A DNA stretch of 63,530 nucleotides, counting the filler, from Asterionella formosa (taxonomy: Eukaryota): the NCBI GenBank assembly GCA_002256025.1. It is 10 parts of 10 records of this genome, joined end to end, with 100 filler letters (N's around TTAATTAATTAA, not from the genome) between each part and the next. Parts side by side here need not be neighbours in the genome. Positions count along the whole stretch, not along the records: positions 1 to 25,211 come from NKIB01002041.1; 9 more parts are not named here. One strand, written 5' to 3'. This document shows, in pieces, positions 7,594-60,278 of the stretch. Each line of letters opens with the position of its first letter. The stretch's first letter is position 1. Position numbers and translations under genes: made by a program. Under the pieces are notes generated by a model. That model was given only the letters and a program-made list of their open reading frames with translations, was not told the origin of the DNA and did no database searches.

Positions 7594-8241
7594 ATGTGCT
7601 TATTCTGTTTCTCGTCTGAACCGCTAGCTCCGCACGAACGCGTGGGTCGATATGGGTCGACAATGGGAGCCTTCGCGGACAACAACTCCACTTTCGACAT
7701 TTCCATGTGTGAAGCACCATGCCGTGAACCATGTTGCTGTCTATCGGCCGCGCTGTGCTTCTGTCCAGCGCAGGTATGGATGAGACATCGTGTCTTGAAT
7801 CATGTCGAACCTGGATCCAACTGGCGCAACTACACCTGTTGCCAAGGGACCTTTCCAGGGTGCTGTTGTTTGCAGCCAGGACAAATGTGCGAAAGCACTT
7901 GTCCCTGCGCCTGCATGTGTTTAGAAGCATGTCTATGTCCTGGTCTTGCGGTCAGTGCCACTTCTATTGTTGTTCGACATGAGTATCGCCTGGGTTTGGA
8001 TGCCGATGATGTTCGATTGATCCGATGCAACAATTGTTTGCAAGTATTTTCCTGCCTCTTTTCATGCCTTGCCCGGTGTACCGATTGTGCCTGGGACGAC
8101 CAAGCCGCCAGTGTGGTGGATTGTATTGCGGACGTTGTCTTTTGTTCAGTGGCAGCCTGTTCAACAGCGCAAACTTATCACGAAATTAAAGTTCGAGAAC
8201 AAATGGGATCTCCAAAACGTGAAGCCATTGAACGCTTCTGA
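7594..8241 (+). CDS. PLAC8-family cysteine-rich protein
   Basis: Single ORF from first ATG 7594; very Cys-rich (PCCCLSAALCFCPAQVWMRHRVL, CMCLEACLCPGLAVSA, CSTAQTYHEI). Confidence 0.7.
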   Translation: MCLFCFSSEPLAPHERVGRYGSTMGAFADNNSTFDISMCEAPCREPCCCLSAALCFCPAQVWMRHRVLNHVEPGSNWRNYTCCQGTFPGCCCLQPGQMCESTCPCACMCLEACLCPGLAVSATSIVVRHEYRLGLDADDVRLIRCNNCLQVFSCLFSCLARCTDCAWDDQAASVVDCIADVVFCSVAACSTAQTYHEIKVREQMGSPKREAIERF

Positions 8242-9188: not shown

Positions 9189-12100
9189 TCACCACTTGCA
9201 TAAAGTGATGGCAAACAAAACGCAGACTTCCACAGCATAAATCACCAACAAACACATGAGTACGGGGACCAATAATATTGACATGACGATGGCATCCTGT
9301 TCCAAGTACCATAAGCCAATCTGGTGAAGAACAGAAACCCAAGTCGATATGCCCTCGGCCGTGTACGTCTCCTCACCCAAACCAAAAAGGTGAGTCCAAG
9401 TACGATGAGGAGACTGAGAAAGATGAGCAAGCCACTGGAAGGTCAATTTCGTCTTGATATTACCCATCATAAGGGTATCCGTACCCTGAAAGGACACGTA
9501 GCTAGAGGCCTTGACATTACACACAACAATTGTTCCAGACGTGGTGAATGGTGCATAAGCCCCCTTACGGAAAATGATATTGATTCTTTCTACAGTCACC
9601 ACCTTGCCCATCGCTGTCTCGAGTTCATCGCCCACTTTGACCGCAGATGCCGGAATGTAGCGACCGCGGATCTTTACCATATGGTCCTTGGAGATCTCTA
9701 GTTGCGACGGAAAAAGCTGAAGATACTCGGCTTCCAAGTTTTCTTGGCGATGACCAAAGCAATATACCATTTCAAAGTTACCGGCGGACACAAGAACCAT
9801 ATCACCGACAGTGAGCTCCGGCATTGTAAGTGAGCCTTTGCCTTTGACTTGGACCGTTGTCACGCTGGAAAAGCAAGATATCCTAGTTGACCGCTCAACT
9901 TTTCCAGTAGTTTGGTTCTGAGCGCTGTCCGTTTCTGTTGCAATACTCAAAAGCGAAGGTGCGTTTGTCGTTGTTCTCTGAATATTTAAAGGTTTCACAG
10001 GAAAAGATGGAACTGACGAAATCGTGGACTGAGCAATATCAGAGTTACCTGTTGGCAAAGGGGATGAAGCGGTATCAGTGCCTACAATAGGGATCGGGTA
10101 TGGAGCTGACGATATCGTGGTCTGATTAATATCAGAATTTTCAGTTGGAATAGAGGATGGAGCCGTATCAATGCCTGCAACAGGGACTTGAAATGGAGCT
10201 GACGAAATCGTGGTCTGAGTAATATCAGAGTTTGCAGTTGGCATAGAGGTTGGAGCAGTATCAGTGCCTGCATCAGGGACCGGATATGGAGCTGGCAAAA
10301 TGCTTGTCTGAGCAATAGTAGAGACTTCAGTTGGCATAGAGGATGGAGCGGTATCAGTGCCTGCAACAGGGATCGGATATGGAGCTGACAAAATGGTGGC
10401 CTGAGTAACATCAGAGTTTACAGTTGGAATAGAGGATGGAGCGGTATGGTTGCCTTCAACAGGGACCAAATATGGAGCTGATGAAATGGCGTTTTGAGTA
10501 ACATCAGAGTTTGAAGTTGATATGGAGGATGGAGCGGACCCATTGTTGTTTTGAGTATTGTGGTAGGCTGCAGTATTTGTCGGCGAAGGAACCCGATTGC
10601 CATGGGCACTATCACCGCAAGAGTTGCAAGTTGCGGAACACATAAAATAAGCTTCATTTTGTGGGACACATATGCCATTTTGCAGTTCGGGCCGGTTTCG
10701 TAACCAATTACAATCTCTTTTGACATTATTCAGCTTGAATTTGAACTTTGAGTCTTCGCATTTTTCATCACAGCTGCGGCAAGTTGCCGAGCAGATTTTC
10801 CAAGCCCCAGACTCGTGACCCGCTACGCAGAGAATAGCCTTGTCCTTTGGATGCCTTGATAACCAATCACAATGGTGAAATTCTTGAATGCTGCTGACAA
10901 AGAAATTCGTCTTAGGCTCGTCGTTGCAATTGTCGTCCTCCTTCCGCTGCTTCGATCCTTTCGCTCCTGCTTTTTTCTTACCATTCTTGCTTGGATGTGG
11001 GTTTTTATGTTCTTTGCCACAATAGTGGTTGTCCTCCTTTTTCTTCTTCGTCGACTTCTCTTTCTTCTTCTTCTTCTTCTTCTTCTTCTTCTTTGATCGT
11101 TTAGAAGAAAAATAAATTGATTTGTGGCAAGACGATGTTGTTGATGGTACTCTGGGTTTGGTGGTTGGCATCTTTAAACCCAAGGCAGGTTTGGACGATG
11201 GTGAACGATGAGGATCAGATGAGACCGGAAGGAGGGATCCCGGTCGGCTATTGGATGGTCGAGCGGATTGTGAAGTATTGATTGAAACAGAGGAAGGAAA
11301 ATTGGTTAGATCATTTCCTGGTCGAGGAAAGGAAGGCGCAAAGGAGAAATTAGTTGCGCTTATAGAAATCGCTGGGGTCATGACAGGTTCAGATGATGGT
11401 GCTCGCTGAGGATCGAATGAAACAAGGGAGGGAAATTCAGTTCGAATATATGATGGTCGAGTTATTTGCGGATTATGGGAAGAAAATTCGGAAGGAAAAT
11501 TTGTTGGTGGCGCAGCATCGGGTGCAACAGGGAAAGGAAAATTGGTTTTTCCATGGTCTGGATGGACAAATTGAGGAGGGCCGGATGAAGGCGCAGAGGG
11601 AAAAATAGATGAGGAGGGTTTTTTGTTTGGAGATTGTTCGGGGGGGAAATTTGAAGGGAGATTAGTTTCTATTGGTGTTTGGTTTGGTTTTGAGTTCGTA
11701 GGTTCCAGAGTGGGACGGTTTGTCGGAAATTTGGTTCGTTGCGGTGGCATTGGAGGAGAAGATGGGACCACAGTATCAATCGTTGTAGATTCTGATCCAC
11801 CGTACTTTTTTCCCTCCTTAATTTTTTTTCCTGATAAAAAAAGTTTGTAGGAACCGGGCGTAAGGCCATCACCACTAGAATCGAAAATGGTGAATATGTA
11901 AGTTTTGTTGACAGCGAGGCAAACGTCATTGACAATTGTTTTACTTGAGTCATTTTCATCGATTTTGTTGTCAAATTGGGGTTCGCCTTGATTAATGAGC
12001 AGATTAACCCCTATTAATTGCCAGCTTACTTCGCTGGCAAAACGATCGAGATTTATTTCAATCTTGAATAAGGTCTGACCAGAATTGCAAACTTCATCGT

Positions 12101-13100
12101 TCTGACGATAAAGTGACCACACAATGTACATTCGTTCAATTTGTCCAGTTGTAAAATCATTCAAGCAATCATCACTTGAATAATCCATAAAGTTGTGGAT
12201 AGGATCAACACCAGGCACACCAGGGCAAGAATCTCGATCTCTCGGACAATCCATTTCTGTCGCGTTGGCTTGCTGAGGTGTGTCAGAGATGTAATCTCCA
12301 GAGTTCCTATCGTCACAGGAGTTTCCTTCAAATGTGTGATACAATCCAAGCCAGTGTCCAACCTCTTGCACCAACGTCTTTCCAAGATGACAGCAATCTG
12401 AGTTTCCTCCTGGAACAGTCGAAATATCCATGAAAACACCATCGGTCACAAAATCGGTTTCGTTCACATGCAAAAGTGACGGAAATCGCGAAAACGAAAC
12501 TCCTTTATCCTTATTTCCCCAATATACCATTAAAGTGTTTGCCTCACCTTTCTTGTAGAGAGACCCAATGGATTGATCGTTATTTTCGTTCAAGTTTGCG
12601 TAGTACATTTGATTCACGACGTATTGAAAACTTAACAGCTCGAATAGAAATGGTGTGTTAGCAAAACCTTCATTCAGTACTTGCATCTGTGCGTCTATTA
12701 TATCTTGCGACATTTCCGACGGAGATTTCGATGGCTGGAAGCTGAGGAATTGTTAACATAAAGGAGTCGAAGTTGTGTCAGCTTTCGCCCAACATGCCGT
12801 GTTGACGCAAAGGTTTCCATGACATTGCCTTTCATTGGCAATTAAAAACCTCAATTTTCGGTAGGCCTTCAGTCAATGTACTCACATGACAAAATGGGTC
12901 GGAATGATAATTTTTTCCACGGCGTTGAAGTCGCTTGATCGCTTTCGCCGGAACAATAGAATATCCGTGTTGAGGCGAGTTGCATCTGCCTCGTTGAGAC
13001 TCAGTGTGGTGCAACGGTTTGTTGTGTGACTATGGCCATCAACAGCGCTACTCGTTGTCACAATCATGAGATAAGCCATGCACGAAAAGATGCATTTCAT
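9189..13100 (-). CDS. Secreted/membrane-anchored M43 (pappalysin/ulilysin-like) metalloprotease domain + Pro/Ser/Thr stalk + Cys-rich repeats + Hedgehog-type Hint domain + C-terminal TM; 2 exons (13100-12886, 12741-9189)
   Basis: Signal-peptide-like MKCIFSCMAYLMIVTTSSA; GTGAG...CTCAG intron 12885-12742 splices in frame; QEVGHWLGLYHTFEG, ISDTP and Met-turn NFMDYS; Hint motifs SCFS...LTVGDMV, LEISKDH, GAYAPFTTSGTIVV..VKASSY; hydrophobic C-terminus. Confidence 0.85.
10021..10545 (-). repeat. Coding tandem repeat, ~93 nt (31 aa) x5-6, mucin-like
   Basis: GGAGCTG recurs at ~10102, 10195, 10288, 10381, 10474; unit approximately DTAPSSIPTxNSDITQTTISSAPYPIPVAGT. Confidence 0.85.
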
Positions 13101-16758: not shown

Positions 16759-19700
16759 TTATCTGAGACTATCTTGTAAGCTTTCTCCCAACAAATCTTC
16801 ACTTAGGCTCACGCATTCTTGCGCAATACCAGCTGTATCTTCGTCGGAGTCCTCCAATAATTCGGACAAAACTGGTAAGCACTCAGGGAGGAGAACCATG
16901 TACTCTTCTCCCAGTGCTTGAATCAACGACAACAGGCACCGGATACCACTATTCCTAACATTGGATTGCCGCTCATTGCTGCAGGCAACCAAAACACCAT
17001 GATTTAATGGCTTCCATAATTGTTCGTTCCCAGCAGCACATGCCAGGGAAGTGATACAAGAAATTGCACCTGGCAGCGACTGTTCACTTTGCAAAAGTTT
17101 GGTCAATGGTCCGAGGAGGGAATGATAACGAGAATTGTCATCGGCTCGAATCCATTGTCCCCCATCATGAGCATCGGCTTTCAATGTATATTCTAAACAA
17201 AGTAAAAGAGGTTCAACATATCGAACAAGTGCATTTTTGTCCACATCATGGTTTGTCGTCATTTTATCATTCAGCTTTTGCTTCTTGGTGCCACCTGCCA
17301 ACTTGATAGCTTGTTTTTTGGGATCAAGAATAGATGCAGCAACGTCCAACTCTCTTACAGCATCCGCAACCACAGTACTCATACAATTGAAGAAAATGGA
17401 CCGAAGCTCTTTACTCAGTATAGCTGTCATGCTCCAGAATGCATATTGTCGCTCCGACGCCTTTTCCATATCATCGTCACGCCATTCACGAACCTTTGCA
17501 AAGAGATCGAAAAGTTGAACTTCTGAAAGTTTCATAACCAGAGCAAGAGCCACACCATTCACAGAATCAAGCAGGTGCTTCTTTTCCTCTATGGAAATAG
17601 CGTTGAAATCATATACAAGCAAAATGCCTTTAACTACATAATTCCTCACACTCGCGAGATCTCCTTGGGGCGCATGATCCATTGAACGTCGGATGATCGC
17701 TAAAATCGTAATGAACTCCTCAACGTGTTGACATGTTGATAGGGCCTTGCATGCCGATGGAACTAATTGACGACAAGGAATGTTCGTGGCCAGTGCCCCA
17801 TCCAATTGCCCCACCATAGTATCGAGGATATTGACGACTGTCTCCCCGTTCGCGCTTCTCTTTATCGAACGAGAGGATAGGATTGCCGGGGTGAACAATC
17901 GATTCAAGTACGGAATCAAAAACTGCGGGACGGATTCTGCCATACCAACGAAAGCTCGAATAGACGAAAGTTGTATCAGCTTGGCGTGATCCAGAAGATT
18001 CATGCTTGACGAGGAATCTGATGCACTTTGATTGGCTTTGGAAAGGAAAAGCAAGAATGAAGAAATCAATTTCGGTAAAAAAGGTAAACATCGAGCCTTC
18101 AGTGTCTTTACAAGAGTCGCAATACCCAGCGCCATGCTGCAAACTAGTTGACACACAGCATCAGTCTCTAGAAACGCTTCACTTGCTGAGAAATGATCTA
18201 GCTGCTTAGAAATCGATTTCATTGCTTGACTGAAGGTCCCAGCATTTTTTGAATCTCCATTGGGCAACACAAGACATCTCGCAATCTGTTCAATGGCCAC
18301 AACAACAGCCTGTTGGACAATGAGTCCGTCGATTGAGGCATCACTTTCAAAGGAATCGAAAAGGGAAACCAGCGACGGTATGATGTCGAGGAACAATGAT
18401 GCTTCCAGGGAATCTGGCGCAACCATAGACGCCCTTTCAGCGACAAATCGCAGTGCTTTGGATTTTAACTCAGCACTTGAGCTATCGTCAATGATACAGT
18501 TGACAGATGCAAGGAAAATATGGGCTGGAAGCATTTTTTGCAAAGTCGCCAATGAATCGTCAACGACAGTTTTCAATGAAGCAGCCAAGGACTTATCAAC
18601 TATCTTGATCGAGTTGGTTTTCACTTCAATGCTGTTCGTAAAACATTTTCGTTCAAGGTCAACGGCAGAAGTTTGCAGGAGAAGTAGATCTTGCCAGATC
18701 TCAAGAGATAAGGAAGAATCCGAGCCACTTCCTTGTTTCACAAATCGTTCCACTAATGGAAAATTGAGGGTTTCAAGCACCAATCCGCAGACTGTATTTG
18801 CGAACGATGCCGACGACGCCATGGTTGACAACGGATTGCTTCGTGTCATGATTTGAATTGACTCAAGTGCCACCTTGTGGTCTGAATCTACCTCTTCATC
18901 TAATACAATTGATAGTGCCGCACTAGCGACGGCAATAAACTCCTTTATCGCCTCCATTTGAGCCTTCACGGGGGCTTTCTGTAAAAGGGAAAGTATGAGG
19001 TGCCGGGGTGTAGCCGCTGACAATTTCGACGAGCTTAAAGTTATTTCATTTGCCAACAGACAGGACAGGAAAAGTCCAAGATGAGATTTTGTCATAAGTG
19101 GAGAGTGCAGCAAAAGGGCATCGACCATACCTGCGCACAAAACATTTTTGATTACTTCGTCCTGAACCGAATTTAATTCCCCTAGGAATGTGCCGAACAG
19201 ATCAAATATAGAAAGCCCAGCTTCCGAAGAGAATTCAATAATAACTGGCACCATTGAAACATATGTATCCCGAGTTGTACGTAATACAACATCTGATGGA
19301 GTCTCAGGCATTTTCGCAAGGCGATTCGTAATCGTGCTGCTAATCAGTGCATGGATAAGCATGGGGACAACAGTTTTCGGGTGATAGCGACACATACGTG
19401 CTAGGAGCTCAAGAGCTGTGCTTTTCGTTTTCCACGATTTTAATGCAATAGTTTCTTTCTTGTTTTCATTGTTAACATTTCTTAACAGGGCGACAAGCAG
19501 GGTAGTGTAGAACGAAACACGATCCTTCGGAACCAATGAAGGATGTTCAGTTTCTCTCATTAAAATTTGCGAAAGTGCCAACAAAACACTATGAGCGGTG
19601 AACTCAACATCATCGTCCGAATGAGCAAATAAAAAAGTTGAGAGACCACCAAGAGTGTCGAATAAAGATGCTATCAATTGCGAAGCATTGTTCTGCACAG

Positions 19701-22700
19701 ACAGCCGCAAAGCGTTTGCTCGTACATAGTCCATCGTGGAAGTAATTGCAACCAAGTTCATAGAATCCTTTATGCCATTGTCGACAAGTGAGCATACATC
19801 CGCTATATCCAACGGAAGACTCAGGAAAGCCGATGCATCCATATCGATTGATCCGCTTGCTCGGAGCGATATTAGAGCGAACGCAAGCTGTGTCCTGCTC
19901 GTCGGTGACAGCTTCTTGAAAATTCCGTTGCTCCAGGATTGTCTCCCAACCACATCATGTAGAAATGTCCGGCACATGTATCGGACAATGGGTGTCGAAT
20001 TCACTGCAGATCCTTTATCGAAGCAGTTTATTATTGTAGTAACCATGTCAGCTGGATAGGGGTGCAAGAGAGCCACGCCCTTTGTTCGACCAACAGAATA
20101 GGAACGGGTACGAGTACCTCGAAAGCTAGGACCGGTGGAAATGATAATATCCATGTCCAAAGACGAGGAATCAACAACAGTGCCCCCTTTCAACATTCGT
20201 CCCAGCACTTGTACAATGGCGTCAGTAGGGCCTTCGGGGTACAAAGTCGGCTTTGAGGCCGTCATAAACATAGCTGATATCTTTGTCCCAGCCATAGCCC
20301 AACGCTCTATCAAAGGGAAAACAGACTCTCCAGCAAATTCAATCGCAGATAGGACGATGGAACACGATCTCAATGAGCCAGCAACAGCGCCAAGATTGCT
20401 CAATGTTTCGTTCGCAAGAAGATTGACACAGGAATCAAGTAGAAACGTTCGCGACTTTTCAGGGTGCTGAGACTCCTTTATGGCTTCACGAAAGTACGCT
20501 GGAAGTGCCGAAGCACCATTTAGTTGAATCGATGACATTAACTTTCCGACAGAAGTAAAGACTTTTGCATCATTATTGAGTTTTGGCTCAAGATTACAAA
20601 GAAGCGCTGCCGCGTTCTTGCGGATATCTTGATCCGTATGAGCCAAAAGAGCCAAAGTTGGCACGATTGCAAGGGCTGATTCTTTTGGATTCGCTGTCAC
20701 CAGGTCAGTGACTCGTTGGAGCACACGATTCAGAGCAACCACTGGACAATCTTCACATGATGCGATTTCCATGAGAAGTGAGACAGGCGAAATAATTTTC
20801 GCAACAGTAGAGCAAATCGAAAGGATTGCTTCACTTGCGACTCGGTTGAATGTATTCTTCGATTCAATCGACAAGAGGAAACGGAGACCAGCGAATAATT
20901 CGTGGAGAGGCAAAAGCTCGACGCTTCGCCGAATACAACTAAGGAGTCGAATGCCTTCTTGTTTTTTAATTTCTTTTGTGATTCTAAGAACAGATAAACA
21001 ACAACCAAAGCCAACCTCCGCAGCCTCTCGCTTACCCTTGGACTTGGACTGTAGCTTCTCTGCTACGACATCGGCAAACACGAGTTGGCTTCTCCTATGA
21101 AGAGATGAGGCAGTTGTCGATGTACTAGGACTCGAGTACATAACTGCGTTCTTGACTTTCTCGCCTGAAAATATCAAGTCTTTTGTAAGTTTCATCGCGT
21201 CTGCGCTCTTTGCATTCTTTTGAAAGGCAAAACACATGGCCATGGCTGCGTTTGACGCAATACCGATGTTGTCAGAGGAAAGGTGTGCTACAATACCTTG
21301 AATCAAAAACGTAAGGGTCTCATCATCGATATCTTTCTCTAGGAGTGCCTTGACGGCATGCGCTGCCAAGGAAAGTGCAATTCCCACAACCTCCCATCGA
21401 CCCTTCATGGCCCCTTCGATGGTCCCAGGTTCTTCAGCCCTATCATCCAAGGCCCAATGTTGCAAGACTGCCAATATGGTGGAAGCCAAACCAGCAGATT
21501 TTCTGTTGTCATTCTTCAATATGGATTCGACAGCTCGACCTGATGCAAGAACGATCTCCATGTTATCTTCCATTGTAACATGTCGAAGGAGTGCTACTTC
21601 GACTCCATCCCCTCCACCATTAGCAATCAATTTCGAGATGGCAGCCAGCCGCACAGTGGAATCTGCATGCTCCAACGCTACTAGCGGAGGTAACAATGCA
21701 GCTGTCGCAGTACCCTCGTCGCTTCGGTTAGTGTCGTCGGTTTGACCCAACAACAGTTGCGCCAAACGAGTCTTGGTAGCTTTGCTATGTTTCTTTCGAG
21801 TGACAGCTTGGGTAATACCAAGATCACAGGCAGACGAGTCAATTGTACGAAGTGCGTCCAGAATGGATCTTGCGCTTTCAGTTACGGTCACGTCGTTGGA
21901 CTGGATAGTTTTCTGTATCAAATGGTATGTAAACGATGCGATAAGGTTGTATTGAGGATCTTTCCACACAGGCTTGATGGTCGAATGCTGTATCAAATTC
22001 AACACTAGCTTGGTAGCATTCGAAAGATCCACCACCACAAGTGACGATAGTAGGTGTGCCACAACATACCCACGTTGTTCGTGCAACAATCCAAGGGCTG
22101 CTCCCAGGAATGGTAATTTGGCAAGACAGGAAAAGGTTTTAGGTGGCAAGGTATATCCCATGTATTCTGGCTCGGTTGCTGTTTTGTTGCTGCGATGTCC
22201 AATCCTGAGCATAGTTGTATTCGTCTTTTTACTGTCATCACGTGGCAAGGACGATAACACCACCATTACAGTGGCTATCCCATCCGCCACTTGTTCCAAG
22301 TTTTTCTCGTCAGTGTACATGGTCAGTCCCTTGACAATGGAAGATGCCAAACCATCAGCAACGTCCACTGTCAAAACTGCATGTTCAGCAATACAACTGG
22401 CAACCACGTATCCAAATCCACGCCAATCCTCATTGTTAACAGTAGTCTTTCCACCACCACTACATGCCCGGATACAATGTGGCAACACAACACGCAAACC
22501 GGCTTCATCGATTGTGCCCGTCGCTGTGGCTTGCATTGTTAGTCCTTCCACAACAATGGCAGCTCCAAATGAGATCCCCATTCCTCCTCCATTTGTCGCA
22601 GAATGCTCAGCAATATCACATGCCAGTTTTAATAATAATGGCGCTTTGGAGGCACGTTTGGCAATCACCCGTCGAGGAACTGGAGGGGCTTGTGGAGCCG

Positions 22701-23292
22701 CATAGGGTCGTAGAAAGGACCAAGTGGGGGAACTAGCCAAATCTATCAATTGCAGTAATCTCGAAAAGAATGGTTTCTCGTGATGTGCCAACATGGACGT
22801 GAGTACTGCATCCGCACAGGTCACATGAATGTCGTGTCGACGTACCAGGTATTCCATCACCACTAAACCTTCGCTTTCTTCCATGGAAGTGGTTCCTAAT
22901 AAGAATAAAAGTTTTCCAATTAACTTGTACCGCTGTTCATTGAGGACCTTAGTGGACAAACCCCGTTCCAATGAAAGTGATGAAACTCCAAAAAGTGGTT
23001 CAGTGTACTGATAAAAGGATTCGTTGTGATTTTGACTCAGTTGCTCCATGACAATCAAGGAATTTTCGCGAAGCGTAGTTAACGGAACATCTGATGCTGA
23101 CTTGGCATTGGCGTACAGTATACTTGGTTTAAACTTTGGATCGGACGTGGTCACGGAATGTCCATGTTGGACTGAATGTGTCAACCCTCGACCGACGGCA
23201 TCCTCATGCCGTTTGGATGTCCCATACGACAATCCTGGAGTCCCCTGTGAGTTTAAAGAAGCCAGCTGGGCTTGCAAACTAGACATTGCCAT
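16759..23292 (-). CDS. UTP10: U3 snoRNA-associated protein 10 / HEAT repeat-containing protein 1 (BAP28)
   Basis: Intronless ~2177-aa ORF; N-terminal MSSLQAQLA...PSILY, VMEYLVRRHDIH; C-terminal LVMKLSE and LGEEYMVLLPECLPVLSELLEDSDE motifs of UTP10/HEATR1. Confidence 0.92.
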   Translation of the reverse strand: MAMSSLQAQLASLNSQGTPGLSYGTSKRHEDAVGRGLTHSVQHGHSVTTSDPKFKPSILYANAKSASDVPLTTLRENSLIVMEQLSQNHNESFYQYTEPLFGVSSLSLERGLSTKVLNEQRYKLIGKLLFLLGTTSMEESEGLVVMEYLVRRHDIHVTCADAVLTSMLAHHEKPFFSRLLQLIDLASSPTWSFLRPYAAPQAPPVPRRVIAKRASKAPLLLKLACDIAEHSATNGGGMGISFGAAIVVEGLTMQATATGTIDEAGLRVVLPHCIRACSGGGKTTVNNEDWRGFGYVVASCIAEHAVLTVDVADGLASSIVKGLTMYTDEKNLEQVADGIATVMVVLSSLPRDDSKKTNTTMLRIGHRSNKTATEPEYMGYTLPPKTFSCLAKLPFLGAALGLLHEQRGYVVAHLLSSLVVVDLSNATKLVLNLIQHSTIKPVWKDPQYNLIASFTYHLIQKTIQSNDVTVTESARSILDALRTIDSSACDLGITQAVTRKKHSKATKTRLAQLLLGQTDDTNRSDEGTATAALLPPLVALEHADSTVRLAAISKLIANGGGDGVEVALLRHVTMEDNMEIVLASGRAVESILKNDNRKSAGLASTILAVLQHWALDDRAEEPGTIEGAMKGRWEVVGIALSLAAHAVKALLEKDIDDETLTFLIQGIVAHLSSDNIGIASNAAMAMCFAFQKNAKSADAMKLTKDLIFSGEKVKNAVMYSSPSTSTTASSLHRRSQLVFADVVAEKLQSKSKGKREAAEVGFGCCLSVLRITKEIKKQEGIRLLSCIRRSVELLPLHELFAGLRFLLSIESKNTFNRVASEAILSICSTVAKIISPVSLLMEIASCEDCPVVALNRVLQRVTDLVTANPKESALAIVPTLALLAHTDQDIRKNAAALLCNLEPKLNNDAKVFTSVGKLMSSIQLNGASALPAYFREAIKESQHPEKSRTFLLDSCVNLLANETLSNLGAVAGSLRSCSIVLSAIEFAGESVFPLIERWAMAGTKISAMFMTASKPTLYPEGPTDAIVQVLGRMLKGGTVVDSSSLDMDIIISTGPSFRGTRTRSYSVGRTKGVALLHPYPADMVTTIINCFDKGSAVNSTPIVRYMCRTFLHDVVGRQSWSNGIFKKLSPTSRTQLAFALISLRASGSIDMDASAFLSLPLDIADVCSLVDNGIKDSMNLVAITSTMDYVRANALRLSVQNNASQLIASLFDTLGGLSTFLFAHSDDDVEFTAHSVLLALSQILMRETEHPSLVPKDRVSFYTTLLVALLRNVNNENKKETIALKSWKTKSTALELLARMCRYHPKTVVPMLIHALISSTITNRLAKMPETPSDVVLRTTRDTYVSMVPVIIEFSSEAGLSIFDLFGTFLGELNSVQDEVIKNVLCAGMVDALLLHSPLMTKSHLGLFLSCLLANEITLSSSKLSAATPRHLILSLLQKAPVKAQMEAIKEFIAVASAALSIVLDEEVDSDHKVALESIQIMTRSNPLSTMASSASFANTVCGLVLETLNFPLVERFVKQGSGSDSSLSLEIWQDLLLLQTSAVDLERKCFTNSIEVKTNSIKIVDKSLAASLKTVVDDSLATLQKMLPAHIFLASVNCIIDDSSSAELKSKALRFVAERASMVAPDSLEASLFLDIIPSLVSLFDSFESDASIDGLIVQQAVVVAIEQIARCLVLPNGDSKNAGTFSQAMKSISKQLDHFSASEAFLETDAVCQLVCSMALGIATLVKTLKARCLPFLPKLISSFLLFLSKANQSASDSSSSMNLLDHAKLIQLSSIRAFVGMAESVPQFLIPYLNRLFTPAILSSRSIKRSANGETVVNILDTMVGQLDGALATNIPCRQLVPSACKALSTCQHVEEFITILAIIRRSMDHAPQGDLASVRNYVVKGILLVYDFNAISIEEKKHLLDSVNGVALALVMKLSEVQLFDLFAKVREWRDDDMEKASERQYAFWSMTAILSKELRSIFFNCMSTVVADAVRELDVAASILDPKKQAIKLAGGTKKQKLNDKMTTNHDVDKNALVRYVEPLLLCLEYTLKADAHDGGQWIRADDNSRYHSLLGPLTKLLQSEQSLPGAISCITSLACAAGNEQLWKPLNHGVLVACSNERQSNVRNSGIRCLLSLIQALGEEYMVLLPECLPVLSELLEDSDEDTAGIAQECVSLSEDLLGESLQDSLR

Positions 23293-57739: not shown

Positions 57740-58652
57740 GTATACTGGGTAACCACCCCAACCAATTATTTTGCAGCAGATAATTCCTAGTGACAAATCG
57801 CAATGTCATTAACTAAACAATGTTTAACGATTTACTATAGCTCGCCGAGGTGGGTTTGTTTCTACAAACACACTTAAAGAGTAATGCCTTCAGGGGGGTC
57901 AAACTTGGATCCCTGTTCAGACAGCTTCTTGTGAGCGTTGGCGTAGGAAGTGAAGAAGTCGTCCTGGCTATCGCGAAACTTTTCGGCGAAAGGGCGGAAG
58001 GAATCGTCACCGAACAAGGTCTTGTCTGTTGAAAGCTTAAGGAGTTCGGGATCGGCGTTAGGATCAGGCATTATTTTGAAATAGCTGTTATCGAAGATCA
58101 ACCACTTGTCCGTCCAACTTGAACCACCTGGAGTGTACTTGGCATCAGTTCCGTCTGCTCGGGGCTGTGGAGATCCATCAGTAAATTTTGTCTTTTCGGC
58201 ACCCAACCCAGATCGGTCTTTGTAAGCACGTCCAAAAGTATGAGCACCGGACAAGGCGACAATTTCTTCATCATTCAATCCCATACGATAAAACACCTTG
58301 CGCAAATGGCCGTTGGGAGTCGTGTCTTCCGTCGAGGCAGTTCCTCCAGATCCACCATACTTGCCTTCGGGGCCCGCTTCAGCGTCTGGCAAGTTACCTT
58401 CCGGCGAACATTGAGACGGGTCACTAGCATCCACACGACCATACTTCATGTCAATCTTTGGTCCCCCAGCAAGGGCAATCGATCTAGCAGATGCCATTTG
58501 AAAGTATACTGGGTAACCACCCCAACCAATTATTTTGCAGCAGATAATTCCAAGTGAGTAATCGCAATGTCATTAACTAAACAAAGTTTAACTATTTACT
58601 ATAGCTCGCCGAGGTGGGTTTGTTTCTACATACACACTTAAAGAGTAATGCC
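57740..58652. repeat. Direct repeat pair 57740-57888 / 58504-58652 (period 764 nt)
   Basis: GTATACTGGGTAACCACCCCAACC...CACTTAAAGAGTAATGCC twice, with several mismatches. Confidence 0.9.
57874..58503 (-). pseudogene. APX: Ascorbate peroxidase (class I haem peroxidase), 5'-truncated duplicate
   Basis: [50 protein letters not shown] (proximal His), [17 protein letters not shown]; upstream sequence is a copy of its own 3' UTR rather than the N-terminal coding part. Confidence 0.75.
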
Positions 58653-58752
58653 NNNNNNNNNNNNNNNNNNNNNNNNNNNNNNNNNNNNNNNNNNNNTTAA
58701 TTAATTAANNNNNNNNNNNNNNNNNNNNNNNNNNNNNNNNNNNNNNNNNNNN

Positions 58753-60278
58753 TTAATAGCAACGGTCCACTGCTTGCTCTCGTCTCCTTTCATAGCCTCC
58801 TTGTAATGCTTTGGCTCCCCGGGATCGGAAGCAAGCGTTGTAGAATATGCATAGAACCTCTCTACTCCTTCTTCACTTTGAAATAGTTCATCATCATCTT
58901 GATAGGCCGCTTCAGAATAATCTATTTCTTCAATTGATCCTTTGTCCTTGTCATCTAGTTGTAAGCTGCGCCGAGCACTGCGTTTGCCAGTAACTTCTTT
59001 CCAACCATCAAGGCGTTTCAATTCTCGTTCCAATTTTGCTTTCTTCGAAGCATCTTTGTTGATCTCATCACTTAACTTCCCCACTGCTTCGGATAGCTGA
59101 AATCTTGTTTGTTTCACAACTGGAACAGGTGTTTCCAAATCAATATCCTGCTGGATAGGTGGCACAACAGGAAGAACATCTTCGTCCTGCTTTTCATCAT
59201 CAATTGGAATAACAACCACTTCTGTGTCCCCTTCCACATTGAAATCCCTCAAACCTGCGATTGGACTTGTTTGGCCATGCCAATCAGCCCAGCGAATGTT
59301 TCGACTATTTAAAATCTTTCTTGTCTGAGGGTTAAACATTCGGTAAGTGTATCCAGCATGATCATGAGAATAACCAACCATCACACATTTAATGGCCTTT
59401 TCTTCGAGTTTATTTGTTTTCTTAGCACCAATTTTCACCCATCCGATCCTGCCAAAATGCATTAGATGATCGTAAATCATTGGAACCTTTTTGTAAAACT
59501 TCTCATCTGCACTTTTTACATCATTAGATGTGGCCACAATGTTCGTGATTCGTGTGTTGGTGTTGATGGCCTCTGCCCAAAGTAAACCTTGAAATTCATC
59601 TTTAAATTTTGCAGCAAACATTGCTGCACATGCTCGTTGACGAATGGTTACAAACTTTCGCTCCACAATTCCATTCTGTTGTGGTGTGTAGGGTGCCGTA
59701 AATTCGATTTGAATATTGAATTTCTCGCATAGTTTTGTCAAACCTGAGACGTTTTCACCCGCATTGTCACAACGGAGAAACTTGGTAACATACTCAGCCG
59801 TTTTTAGTTTAGTCAACAAATCTTCAATCTTTGAAGCAAGCTGTGACTTCTTCTTAACAAAGAAACTCCAAGATTTTCCGGTGTAATCATCAACAACAAG
59901 GATCCAATAATCATTTCCTAAAATCGACTTTTTATATGGACCGCTGATATCTGTGCACAAACGTTCGCCCGGTTGAGTAGCCTTGCTCATAGTGATTTTA
60001 GGAACACTTTTTGCTTTAGCCTTAGCTAGCGCACATCCTTCACATGTATACATCACACCTGTCATTTTGATACCAAGCGATTTCATAGTAGCCCGCAATG
60101 CCGCTTCCCCAATATGTCCGTATTTAGCGTGAGCTTCATTAATGTCCATACTGGTCAATTTCGTTGTGATGACCTCTGCAGATAAGATATCACTCCCACC
60201 TGGGTAAATTCCACGAGTTCCTTGGAAATAGTACAAAACATCTGAATGATCACGTTTGAAATCTAGCGTCTCAGTTTT
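58753..60278 (-). mobile_element. Ty1/copia LTR retrotransposon pol fragment (integrase to start of RT)
   Basis: Frame open across the whole contig; HHCC (AHAKYGH...CEGC), DDE (CTDISGP, RCDNAGE, QQNGIVER), LWAEA, KLEEKAIKCVMVGYS, then EPKHYKEAM...W. Confidence 0.93.

Follow-up and report, generated by a model that had tools for sequence, protein, structure and literature searches.

The window analysed here, a stretch of 63,530 nucleotides from the diatom Asterionella formosa (assembly GCA_002256025.1), is made up of several contigs joined by N spacers, and the gene described in this report belongs to the first of these only (positions 1-25211). This minus-strand gene encodes a protein of 1255 amino acids with an M43 metalloprotease domain near its N-terminus and, at its C-terminus, a Hint domain followed by a sterol-recognition-like region (SRR) and a hydrophobic helix, referred to below as the Hog cassette. 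The features of the locus, in the order in which they are transcribed, are as follows:

13041..13100, minus strand: signal-peptide-like N-terminus, residues 1 to ~20 (hydrophobic 9-mers up to 2.1; alike in eight relatives)
12886..13040, minus strand: rest of exon 1, a putative propeptide with Cys30 (this cysteine aligned in 9/9 N-termini)
12742..12885, minus strand: GT-AG intron of 144 nt (joined in RNA contigs of runs X1, X2 and X3)
11248..12547, minus strand: minor alternative GT-AG skip of 1300 nt inside exon 2 (RNA runs X1 and X2, one study)
12126..12741, minus strand: M43 (pappalysin/ulilysin-type) metalloprotease domain (Pfam core 12380-12126)
11769..12089, minus strand: domain of ~105 amino acids following M43, beta-type by sequence pattern only
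11112..11768, minus strand: Pro/Ser/Thr-rich stalk (composition by 100 amino acid blocks)
10929..11111, minus strand: Lys-rich segment, 28 Lys/Arg in 61 amino acids (composition)
10617..10928, minus strand: pair of six-Cys modules ending C-x3-C-x2-C, ShK-like on weak but consistent support
10007..10537, minus strand: 93-bp (31 amino acid) Pro/Ser/Thr tandem repeat, 5.7 copies, 81% matches (repeat analysis)
9495..9875, minus strand: Hint domain, residues 1028-1154 (Pfam, PDB alignments, fold)
9303..9494, minus strand: SRR, residues 1155-1218 (Pfam, comparison with SHH)
9198..9293, minus strand: C-terminal hydrophobic helix, likely membrane-spanning (hydrophobicity, structural model, relatives)

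The gene is spliced once, exon 1 (13100-12886) being separated from exon 2 (12741-9189) by the intron at 12885-12742, and the minus-strand frame from 12752 to 9189 is uninterrupted for 1187 codons. RNA contigs tile the gene, and the intron is joined in three of the four runs examined, from two studies. The Hint domain, the repeats, the Cys modules and the last part of the stalk fall on one contig of 2634 nt, and the stalk and M43 core on the next, with a 30-nt overlap between the two; the whole gene is not spanned by any one RNA contig from the four runs. The gene is real and transcribed, with the highest shares seen in lake-water metatranscriptomes. A first-pass annotation, made from the sequence, had placed the protease and the Hint domain in one gene. 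The single frame, the tiling RNA contigs and the recurrence of the M43 plus Hint architecture (8 of the 120 matches listed) bear this out, and rule out the alternative of two separate genes.

The protease domain matches Peptidase_M43 in Pfam above the curated cut-off (E 1.3e-13) and can be aligned with mirolysin (E 9e-13) across both the zinc motif and the Met-turn (NFMDY at 12194, NYMDY in mirolysin); ulilysin matches too. The allele in the window, however, has QEVGHWLGLYH in place of the expected HEXXHXXGXXH, the codon for the first zinc ligand (12368-12366) being CAA and specifying glutamine. That this is an assembly error is ruled out by RNA run X6, which has the same Gln allele, whilst runs X1, X2 and X3 have a His codon. 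Histidine is also found at this position in all three database cluster members that cover the site, and 16 of the 17 M43 relatives possess the full zinc motif (the remaining one shows none). These same observations rule out a family-wide pseudo-enzyme and indicate that the gene normally encodes an intact-looking protease. Judged from the sequence, the protease is probably weakened or dead in the window allele and intact in other copies. The proposal in the first-pass annotation that a metalloprotease-like domain is delivered to the cell surface or wall changes in two respects: the window allele lacks the first zinc His and the cassette, as described below, is not specific to this protease. Compared with other M43B enzymes (mirolysin, ulilysin and the pappalysins), the diatom protein differs in its Gln allele, its long stalk, its ShK-like pair and the Hog cassette appended to it.

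The Hog cassette and its active site

The Hint domain matches PF01079 with an E value of 3.7e-16, above the curated cut-off, over model positions 10-211 of 213. Its first cysteine, Cys1028 (codon TGC at 9875-9873), the SKDH block, YAPFTTSGTIVV and the WLAHLSQSPHR segment were all found, the Cys codon at the position given in the first-pass annotation. A Pfam scan of the entire protein gives M43 and Hint matches only, with no HhN signalling domain, and the protein is accordingly a non-Hedgehog Hog protein with a complete Hog domain, not a Hedgehog. In an AlphaFold model of the last 231 residues (predicted local distance difference test score, pLDDT, 96) the Hint beta-fold is followed by short helices and then by a 33-residue C-terminal helix. 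The closest folds are those of Hedgehog, 6TYY and 1AT0 (Foldseek E 4e-10; VIA Z 21.8, root-mean-square deviation 1.3 Å over 127 residues), and these rank above all inteins, the comparison set of inteins, BIL and Vint domains giving Z scores of 11.5-18.4. The diatom domain shares with that set the Hint fold and an N-terminal Cys, but lacks the C-terminal His-Asn, C-extein or vWA partner and has the SRR and helix instead; the positions equivalent to the intein/BIL His-Asn and C-extein nucleophile read K-A-S-S-Y.

Comparison with fly Hedgehog reveals an active site that is similar but not identical. Cys1 is retained, and T69 and H72 correspond to the Ser and His of the S-K-D-H block (block B). 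Asp46, on the other hand, is replaced by His (in FGHR) and Cys143 by Ser (A-S-S-Y in place of A-S-C143-Y), whilst the residue preceding Cys1 is Ser1027 rather than the Gly-1 of Hedgehog. The best PDB sequence match of the Hint domain is an engineered Hedgehog D46H mutant. The WLAHLSQSPHR segment forms part of a Hedgehog-type SRR, in which H151, P156 and R158 are spaced like H374, P379 and R381 of SHH, and GISTW...IGLWYL corresponds to GIHWY...IGTWLL of SHH; the labels K and L used here for SRR motifs reflect our own mapping onto Burglin's motifs. The C-terminal hydrophobic stretch, which the first-pass annotation had read as a transmembrane segment, reaches a Kyte-Doolittle 19-residue mean of 2.8 and probably crosses the membrane. 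The diatom protein and animal Hedgehog (PF01079; PDB 1AT0, 6TYY) are alike in Hint fold, Cys1, the hydroxyl-x-x-His of block B, the His-Pro-Arg and G-I-x-W of the SRR and the C-terminal placement of the cassette behind a putatively secreted domain, but differ in the three substitutions just described, in the absence of HhN, and in the extra hydrophobic helix, the enzyme cargo and the occurrence of the cassette on many cargoes. The intron, the QEVGHWLGLYH motif, the ~105 amino acid domain, the ShK-like character of the Cys modules and the SRR character of WLAHLSQSPHR had all gone unremarked in the first-pass annotation.

A search of 1.84 billion representatives with the cassette returned 411 clusters at E values up to 1e-30, and conservation was counted across the best 150 of these 411 representatives (50% identity). 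Cys1 is present in all 142 that reach the column, the other eight being truncated. His occupies the Asp46 position in 149/150, and block B has Ser or Thr in 148/150 and His in 149/150. Cys1, both His residues (including His42) and the block-B hydroxyl occur together in 141 of the 142 testable representatives, and the Ser preceding the Cys143 position (Ser124) is invariant (150/150). Within the SRR, the His-Pro-Arg residues are retained in 134, 119 and 147 representatives, and the SRR/motif L residues R, G and W in 147, 147 and 144, respectively. A hydrophobic helix follows the SRR in all 149 full tails. The seven best-filled columns, at 99% or above, comprise four polar active-site positions and three Gly/Pro positions. 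The focal cassette retains 55 of 61 well-conserved positions, and so does not look decayed. In a search with a profile built from the tail only, every one of the 120 matches listed also carries a Hint domain.

Cargoes of the cassette

The cassette relatives that bear species names come from araphid pennate diatoms (Thalassionema, Synedropsis and Fragilaria crotonensis). All of the best 150 representatives match PF01079, 41 with a named N-terminal cargo and 109 with none; by our own tally the named cargoes are of 21 kinds, with 19 peptidases of six families. They include trypsins, M11, S8 and aspartic proteases, multicopper oxidases, sulfatases, leucine-rich repeat proteins, chitinase, fasciclin and phosphate-binding proteins. 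In the A. formosa genome itself there are ten PF01079 matches above the cut-off, corresponding to about seven distinct genes once near-identical pairs are merged, of which two have an M43 cargo and three an M11-like one, with trypsin and a Reeler-like head also represented; M11 and Reeler were assigned via BLAST to Pfam-labelled relatives.

On a quick cassette tree with SH-aLRT support only, built from 91 of 202 cassettes (111 distant, unlabelled ones being excluded), the M43 label changes seven times, and branches with support of at least 95 force five or more of these changes. The sister of one M43 cassette is that of a multicopper oxidase (support 99), and the second M43 cassette of this genome clusters with the trypsin and M11 cassettes of the same genome and not with the focal one. 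Gene conversion could have contributed to this pattern. The cassette is portable and has been swapped among cargo types, the M43 fusion being one case.

The same heads in this genome also end in ShK-like pairs without a Hog cassette, whilst the focal gene has both modules. The Hog form and the ShK-like-pair form of the M11-like head are 64% identical, and the closest M43 paralogue in the genome (76% identical in the core) ends directly after the Cys pair, with no Hog within 9.9 kb. A comparable alternation has been described in the Cyanidiales, where passages of one report have either a Hint domain or a Cys-rich trefoil behind a kelch head and a Thr/Pro/Ala linker (PMC9812998).

Several further proteins were noted alongside these. 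A family of secreted proteins with trypsin, M11-like, Reeler-like, M43 or unnamed heads, each ending in at least one ShK-like six-Cys pair, accounts for 17 matches in the genome, its members including L021/L046 (on G000:C984), L023 and L025-L032. A contig without a PF01079 match (G000:C9671) holds two divergent M43 genes, L038 and L040, which have long PT-repeat stalks; one of them runs off the contig end. Amongst relatives, P0194 has two Hint matches within a single protein of 798 amino acids, P0049 combines M43 with three ShK-like pairs and no Hog, and P0039 has a Cys pair ahead of its Hog cassette.

Non-Hedgehog Hog proteins in protists are not in themselves new. Burglin (2008) described them in many protists, often with Ser, Thr or Asp in place of the motif J Cys, and proposed that sterol addition to secreted partners was the role of ancestral Hog proteins; that text, as searched, mentions no diatom, stramenopile or protease, and uses 'transmembrane' for a cnidarian protein only (PMC2362128). 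Excerpts from later reports record expansions of Hint genes in Pleurosigma and Seminavis, with more than 100 in some diatoms (PMC12803021), and in Bostrychia (bioRxiv 10.1101/2025.02.11.637652), in each case with no architecture given there, and further mentions come from passages on Ectocarpus and Seminavis (PMC3879662), chromerids (PMC4501334), Caenorhabditis elegans (PMC1636047) and a Glomeromycotina AIG1 plus Hint fusion (PMC8778642). The Hog genes of the Cyanidiales are called of unknown function in the section consulted (PMC13353863). A survey of stramenopile metalloproteases found M43 to be diatom-specific within its sample, and its text and two supplements make no mention of Hint (PMC8035641). 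We found no description of diatom proteins that combine an enzyme, a Hog domain and a membrane helix, although the supplementary domain tables of diatom genome papers may list such fusions. Like the non-Hedgehog Hog proteins known from protists, fungi and nematodes, the diatom protein joins a putatively secreted, fast-changing N-terminus to a Hog domain; it differs from them in its recognisable enzyme cargo and in the membrane helix in its tail. It is the enzyme cargoes, the helix, the active site with His46 and no Cys143, and the portability that are new here.

Cleavage, acceptor and alternative fates

Two papers describe Hedgehog as unique among known protein families in coupling itself to cholesterol via a Hint/Hog domain (PMC1636047, PMC12054796). 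By homology, the diatom precursor would enter the secretory pathway, with its C-terminal helix keeping it in the membrane. An N-to-S acyl shift, promoted by Cys1 and the S-x-x-H block, would then convert the Ser1027-Cys1028 peptide bond to a thioester, and the His at the Asp46 position would activate a membrane sterol that the SRR helices hold in place. This sterol may attack the Cys1 thioester directly, with no Cys143 relay of the kind used by Hedgehog. The ~110 kDa front part (protease, long stalk and ShK-like modules) would be left on the outside of the cell with a lipid anchor, whilst the ~25 kDa piece comprising Hog and helix would be discarded. Diatoms do make sterols, as well as long-chain polyamines.

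We consider cleavage of some kind to be quite likely, and tentatively prefer, as a possibility a little short of evenly balanced, self-cleavage at Ser1027/Cys1028 with transfer of the protease to a sterol. In its favour are the near-invariant catalytic residues and the conserved residues of the SRR. In Hedgehog, the His-Pro-Arg residues of the SHH SRR (H374, P379 and R381) are reported to be critical for cholesterolysis, the three leucines that follow being needed in cells (PMC7906309). Hedgehog D46H is active in cells (PMC12054796) and takes more sterols (review, PMC8529194). The autoprocessing release or lipidation system envisaged in the first-pass annotation thus survives as the best reading of the conserved active site and Hedgehog fold, with the reservation that the Asp46 and Cys143 positions differ. 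The suggestion made there that the protein is tethered by the Hint domain can apply to the precursor only, since cleavage at Cys1028 would free the Hint domain and helix as a separate piece.

A number of observations weigh against sterol transfer. Hedgehog cannot autoprocess without Cys143: C143A and C143D are dead, and the residue is reportedly needed for N-terminal cleavage as well (PMC12054796). In the 150 representatives, by contrast, this position is Ser in 62, Asn in 47, Thr in 29 and Cys in just six, and Asn cannot be a nucleophile. The Gly that precedes Cys1 in Hedgehog is found in only 7 of 141 relatives. The direct match of SRR motif L to SHH amounts to just 3.2 bits, which is weak when taken alone, the three SHH leucines after His-Pro-Arg are only partly matched (Thr, Leu and Gly here), and the tail-only profile finds nothing amongst PDB sequences at E values up to 10. 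With a membrane helix of its own, the protein has less evident need of a second anchor. Finally, we found no experiment on an enzyme-Hog-membrane-helix protein, and no sterol test of any non-animal Hog, in a literature in which subscription papers were sparsely covered.

If water rather than a sterol were to resolve the thioester, cleavage before Cys1028 would shed the enzyme from its membrane-held precursor, possibly on cue. The invariance of Cys1 and block B is as consistent with this as is the replacement of both Asp46 and Cys143, and the existence of close paralogues of the same cargoes without any anchor implies that a free form is useful. Hydrolysis, however, would need neither the SRR His-Pro-Arg and motif L residues, which are so well conserved, nor an invariant acceptor-activating His, and we regard this self-release as unlikely. 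It is also conceivable that no cleavage takes place in practice, in which case the protein would be a membrane-anchored ecto-protease with the Hog serving as a lipid-binding or folding module. Hedgehog processing is lost without Cys143, which the cassette family mostly lacks, few relatives have Gly at -1, and a membrane helix is present in the precursor in any case; but the joint retention of Cys1, both His residues and the block-B hydroxyl across unrelated cargoes is hard to explain without catalysis, so that an inert cassette seems distinctly improbable.

The cassette might instead ligate its cargo to something other than a sterol, for example another lipid, a hydroxyl on a wall polysaccharide, or the amine of lysine or of a long-chain polyamine, so that the enzyme would be covalently fixed to the organic layer coating the silica wall. 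Hedgehog becomes less selective for its acceptor with His46, the diatom protein contains a poly-Lys segment, and the alternation of the cassette with ShK-like Cys pairs at the C-terminus of the same enzymes fits an attachment role. Ciliate BIL domains, moreover, are able to ligate lysine. Against this, the SRR resembles the amphipathic, membrane-facing element of Hedgehog, nothing was found that points to a wall acceptor, and red-algal Hog genes are expressed chiefly in haploid cells, whereas it is the diploid cells that are walled (PMC13353863). A non-sterol acceptor appears very unlikely.

Returning to self-ligation in its broader form, the proposition that diatoms run a portable self-ligating anchor, with a natural His46, no Cys143 and a helix of its own, that covalently joins dozens of unrelated secreted enzymes to a sterol or, more boldly, to a wall component strikes us as evenly poised. 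If true, it would explain how diatoms display enzymes at their surface, offer an alternative to glycosylphosphatidylinositol (GPI) anchoring, extend protein sterolation beyond Hedgehog, supply promiscuous self-ligating tags and represent a way around the branched intermediate that is currently regarded as essential in Hedgehog. The family provides small, well-folding test cases with assayable enzyme cargoes, and because it bears by nature the His46 that has been engineered into Hedgehog, and lacks Cys143, one in vitro assay would bear both on evolution and on the disputed role of Cys143. The M43 fusion is one family member only; the weight lies on the family and on its easy test.

Other features of the gene and its neighbourhood

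The signal peptide was judged from hydrophobicity and the aligned N-termini of eight relatives only. Cys30, in the putative propeptide, we take to be a candidate cysteine switch by analogy with pappalysin-family biology. The ~105 amino acid domain has no Pfam match above the cut-off but recurs after M43 in many relatives, and is also seen in other Hog-bearing proteins.

The stalk, poly-Lys segment, two Cys-rich modules and 31 amino acid repeats of the first-pass annotation were recovered by composition, by a run of CTT x19 and by the 5.7 repeat copies. The poly-Lys codon run (11025-11101) encodes 11 Lys in the window and 10, 10, 7 and 7 in database copies, always in frame, and the 31 amino acid repeat has no Pfam match above the cut-off. 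The Cys pair of the focal gene likewise gives no ShK (PF01549) match in Pfam, whilst 4 of 12 paralogous Cys pairs give weak ones (best E 0.023). In a fold search, the four chains with Z of at least 2 among 48,161 are all ShK-type (Z 2.4-2.8); Foldseek returned nothing for the pair at E values up to 0.001, and its Atlas score for ShK is 0.83, which serves as a lead only.

The 1300 nt skip has a consensus donor (AAG|GTGAG) and an AG acceptor, and a depth of 11 compared with 33 for the unskipped path (about a third), the short side of the joint being only 28 nt, below the length at which such joints are trusted. It deletes the catalytic core and shifts the frame to give a product of 160 amino acids. 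Five other splice choices were rejected, four because they lead to stops and one which stays in frame but has no RNA support. Two 1-nt insertions in a single X2 contig fall in homopolymer runs, are found in none of the other three runs and are probable artefacts. All four RNA runs differ from the window by a silent C>A at 11697 (plus strand), where the window may carry an assembly error or another allele.

Facing the 3' end of the gene on the plus strand is an open reading frame (ORF) encoding a Cys-rich protein of 215 amino acids (7594-8241) with no Pfam match, which looks PLAC8-like. On the other side (16759-23292, minus strand) lies a gene for a 2177 amino acid HEAT-repeat protein with a BP28CT domain, an ordinary nucleolar-type neighbour. 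The later pieces of the window (25212-62004) include a peroxidase-like ORF at 57874-58497 and a retroelement integrase ORF at 58701-60149.

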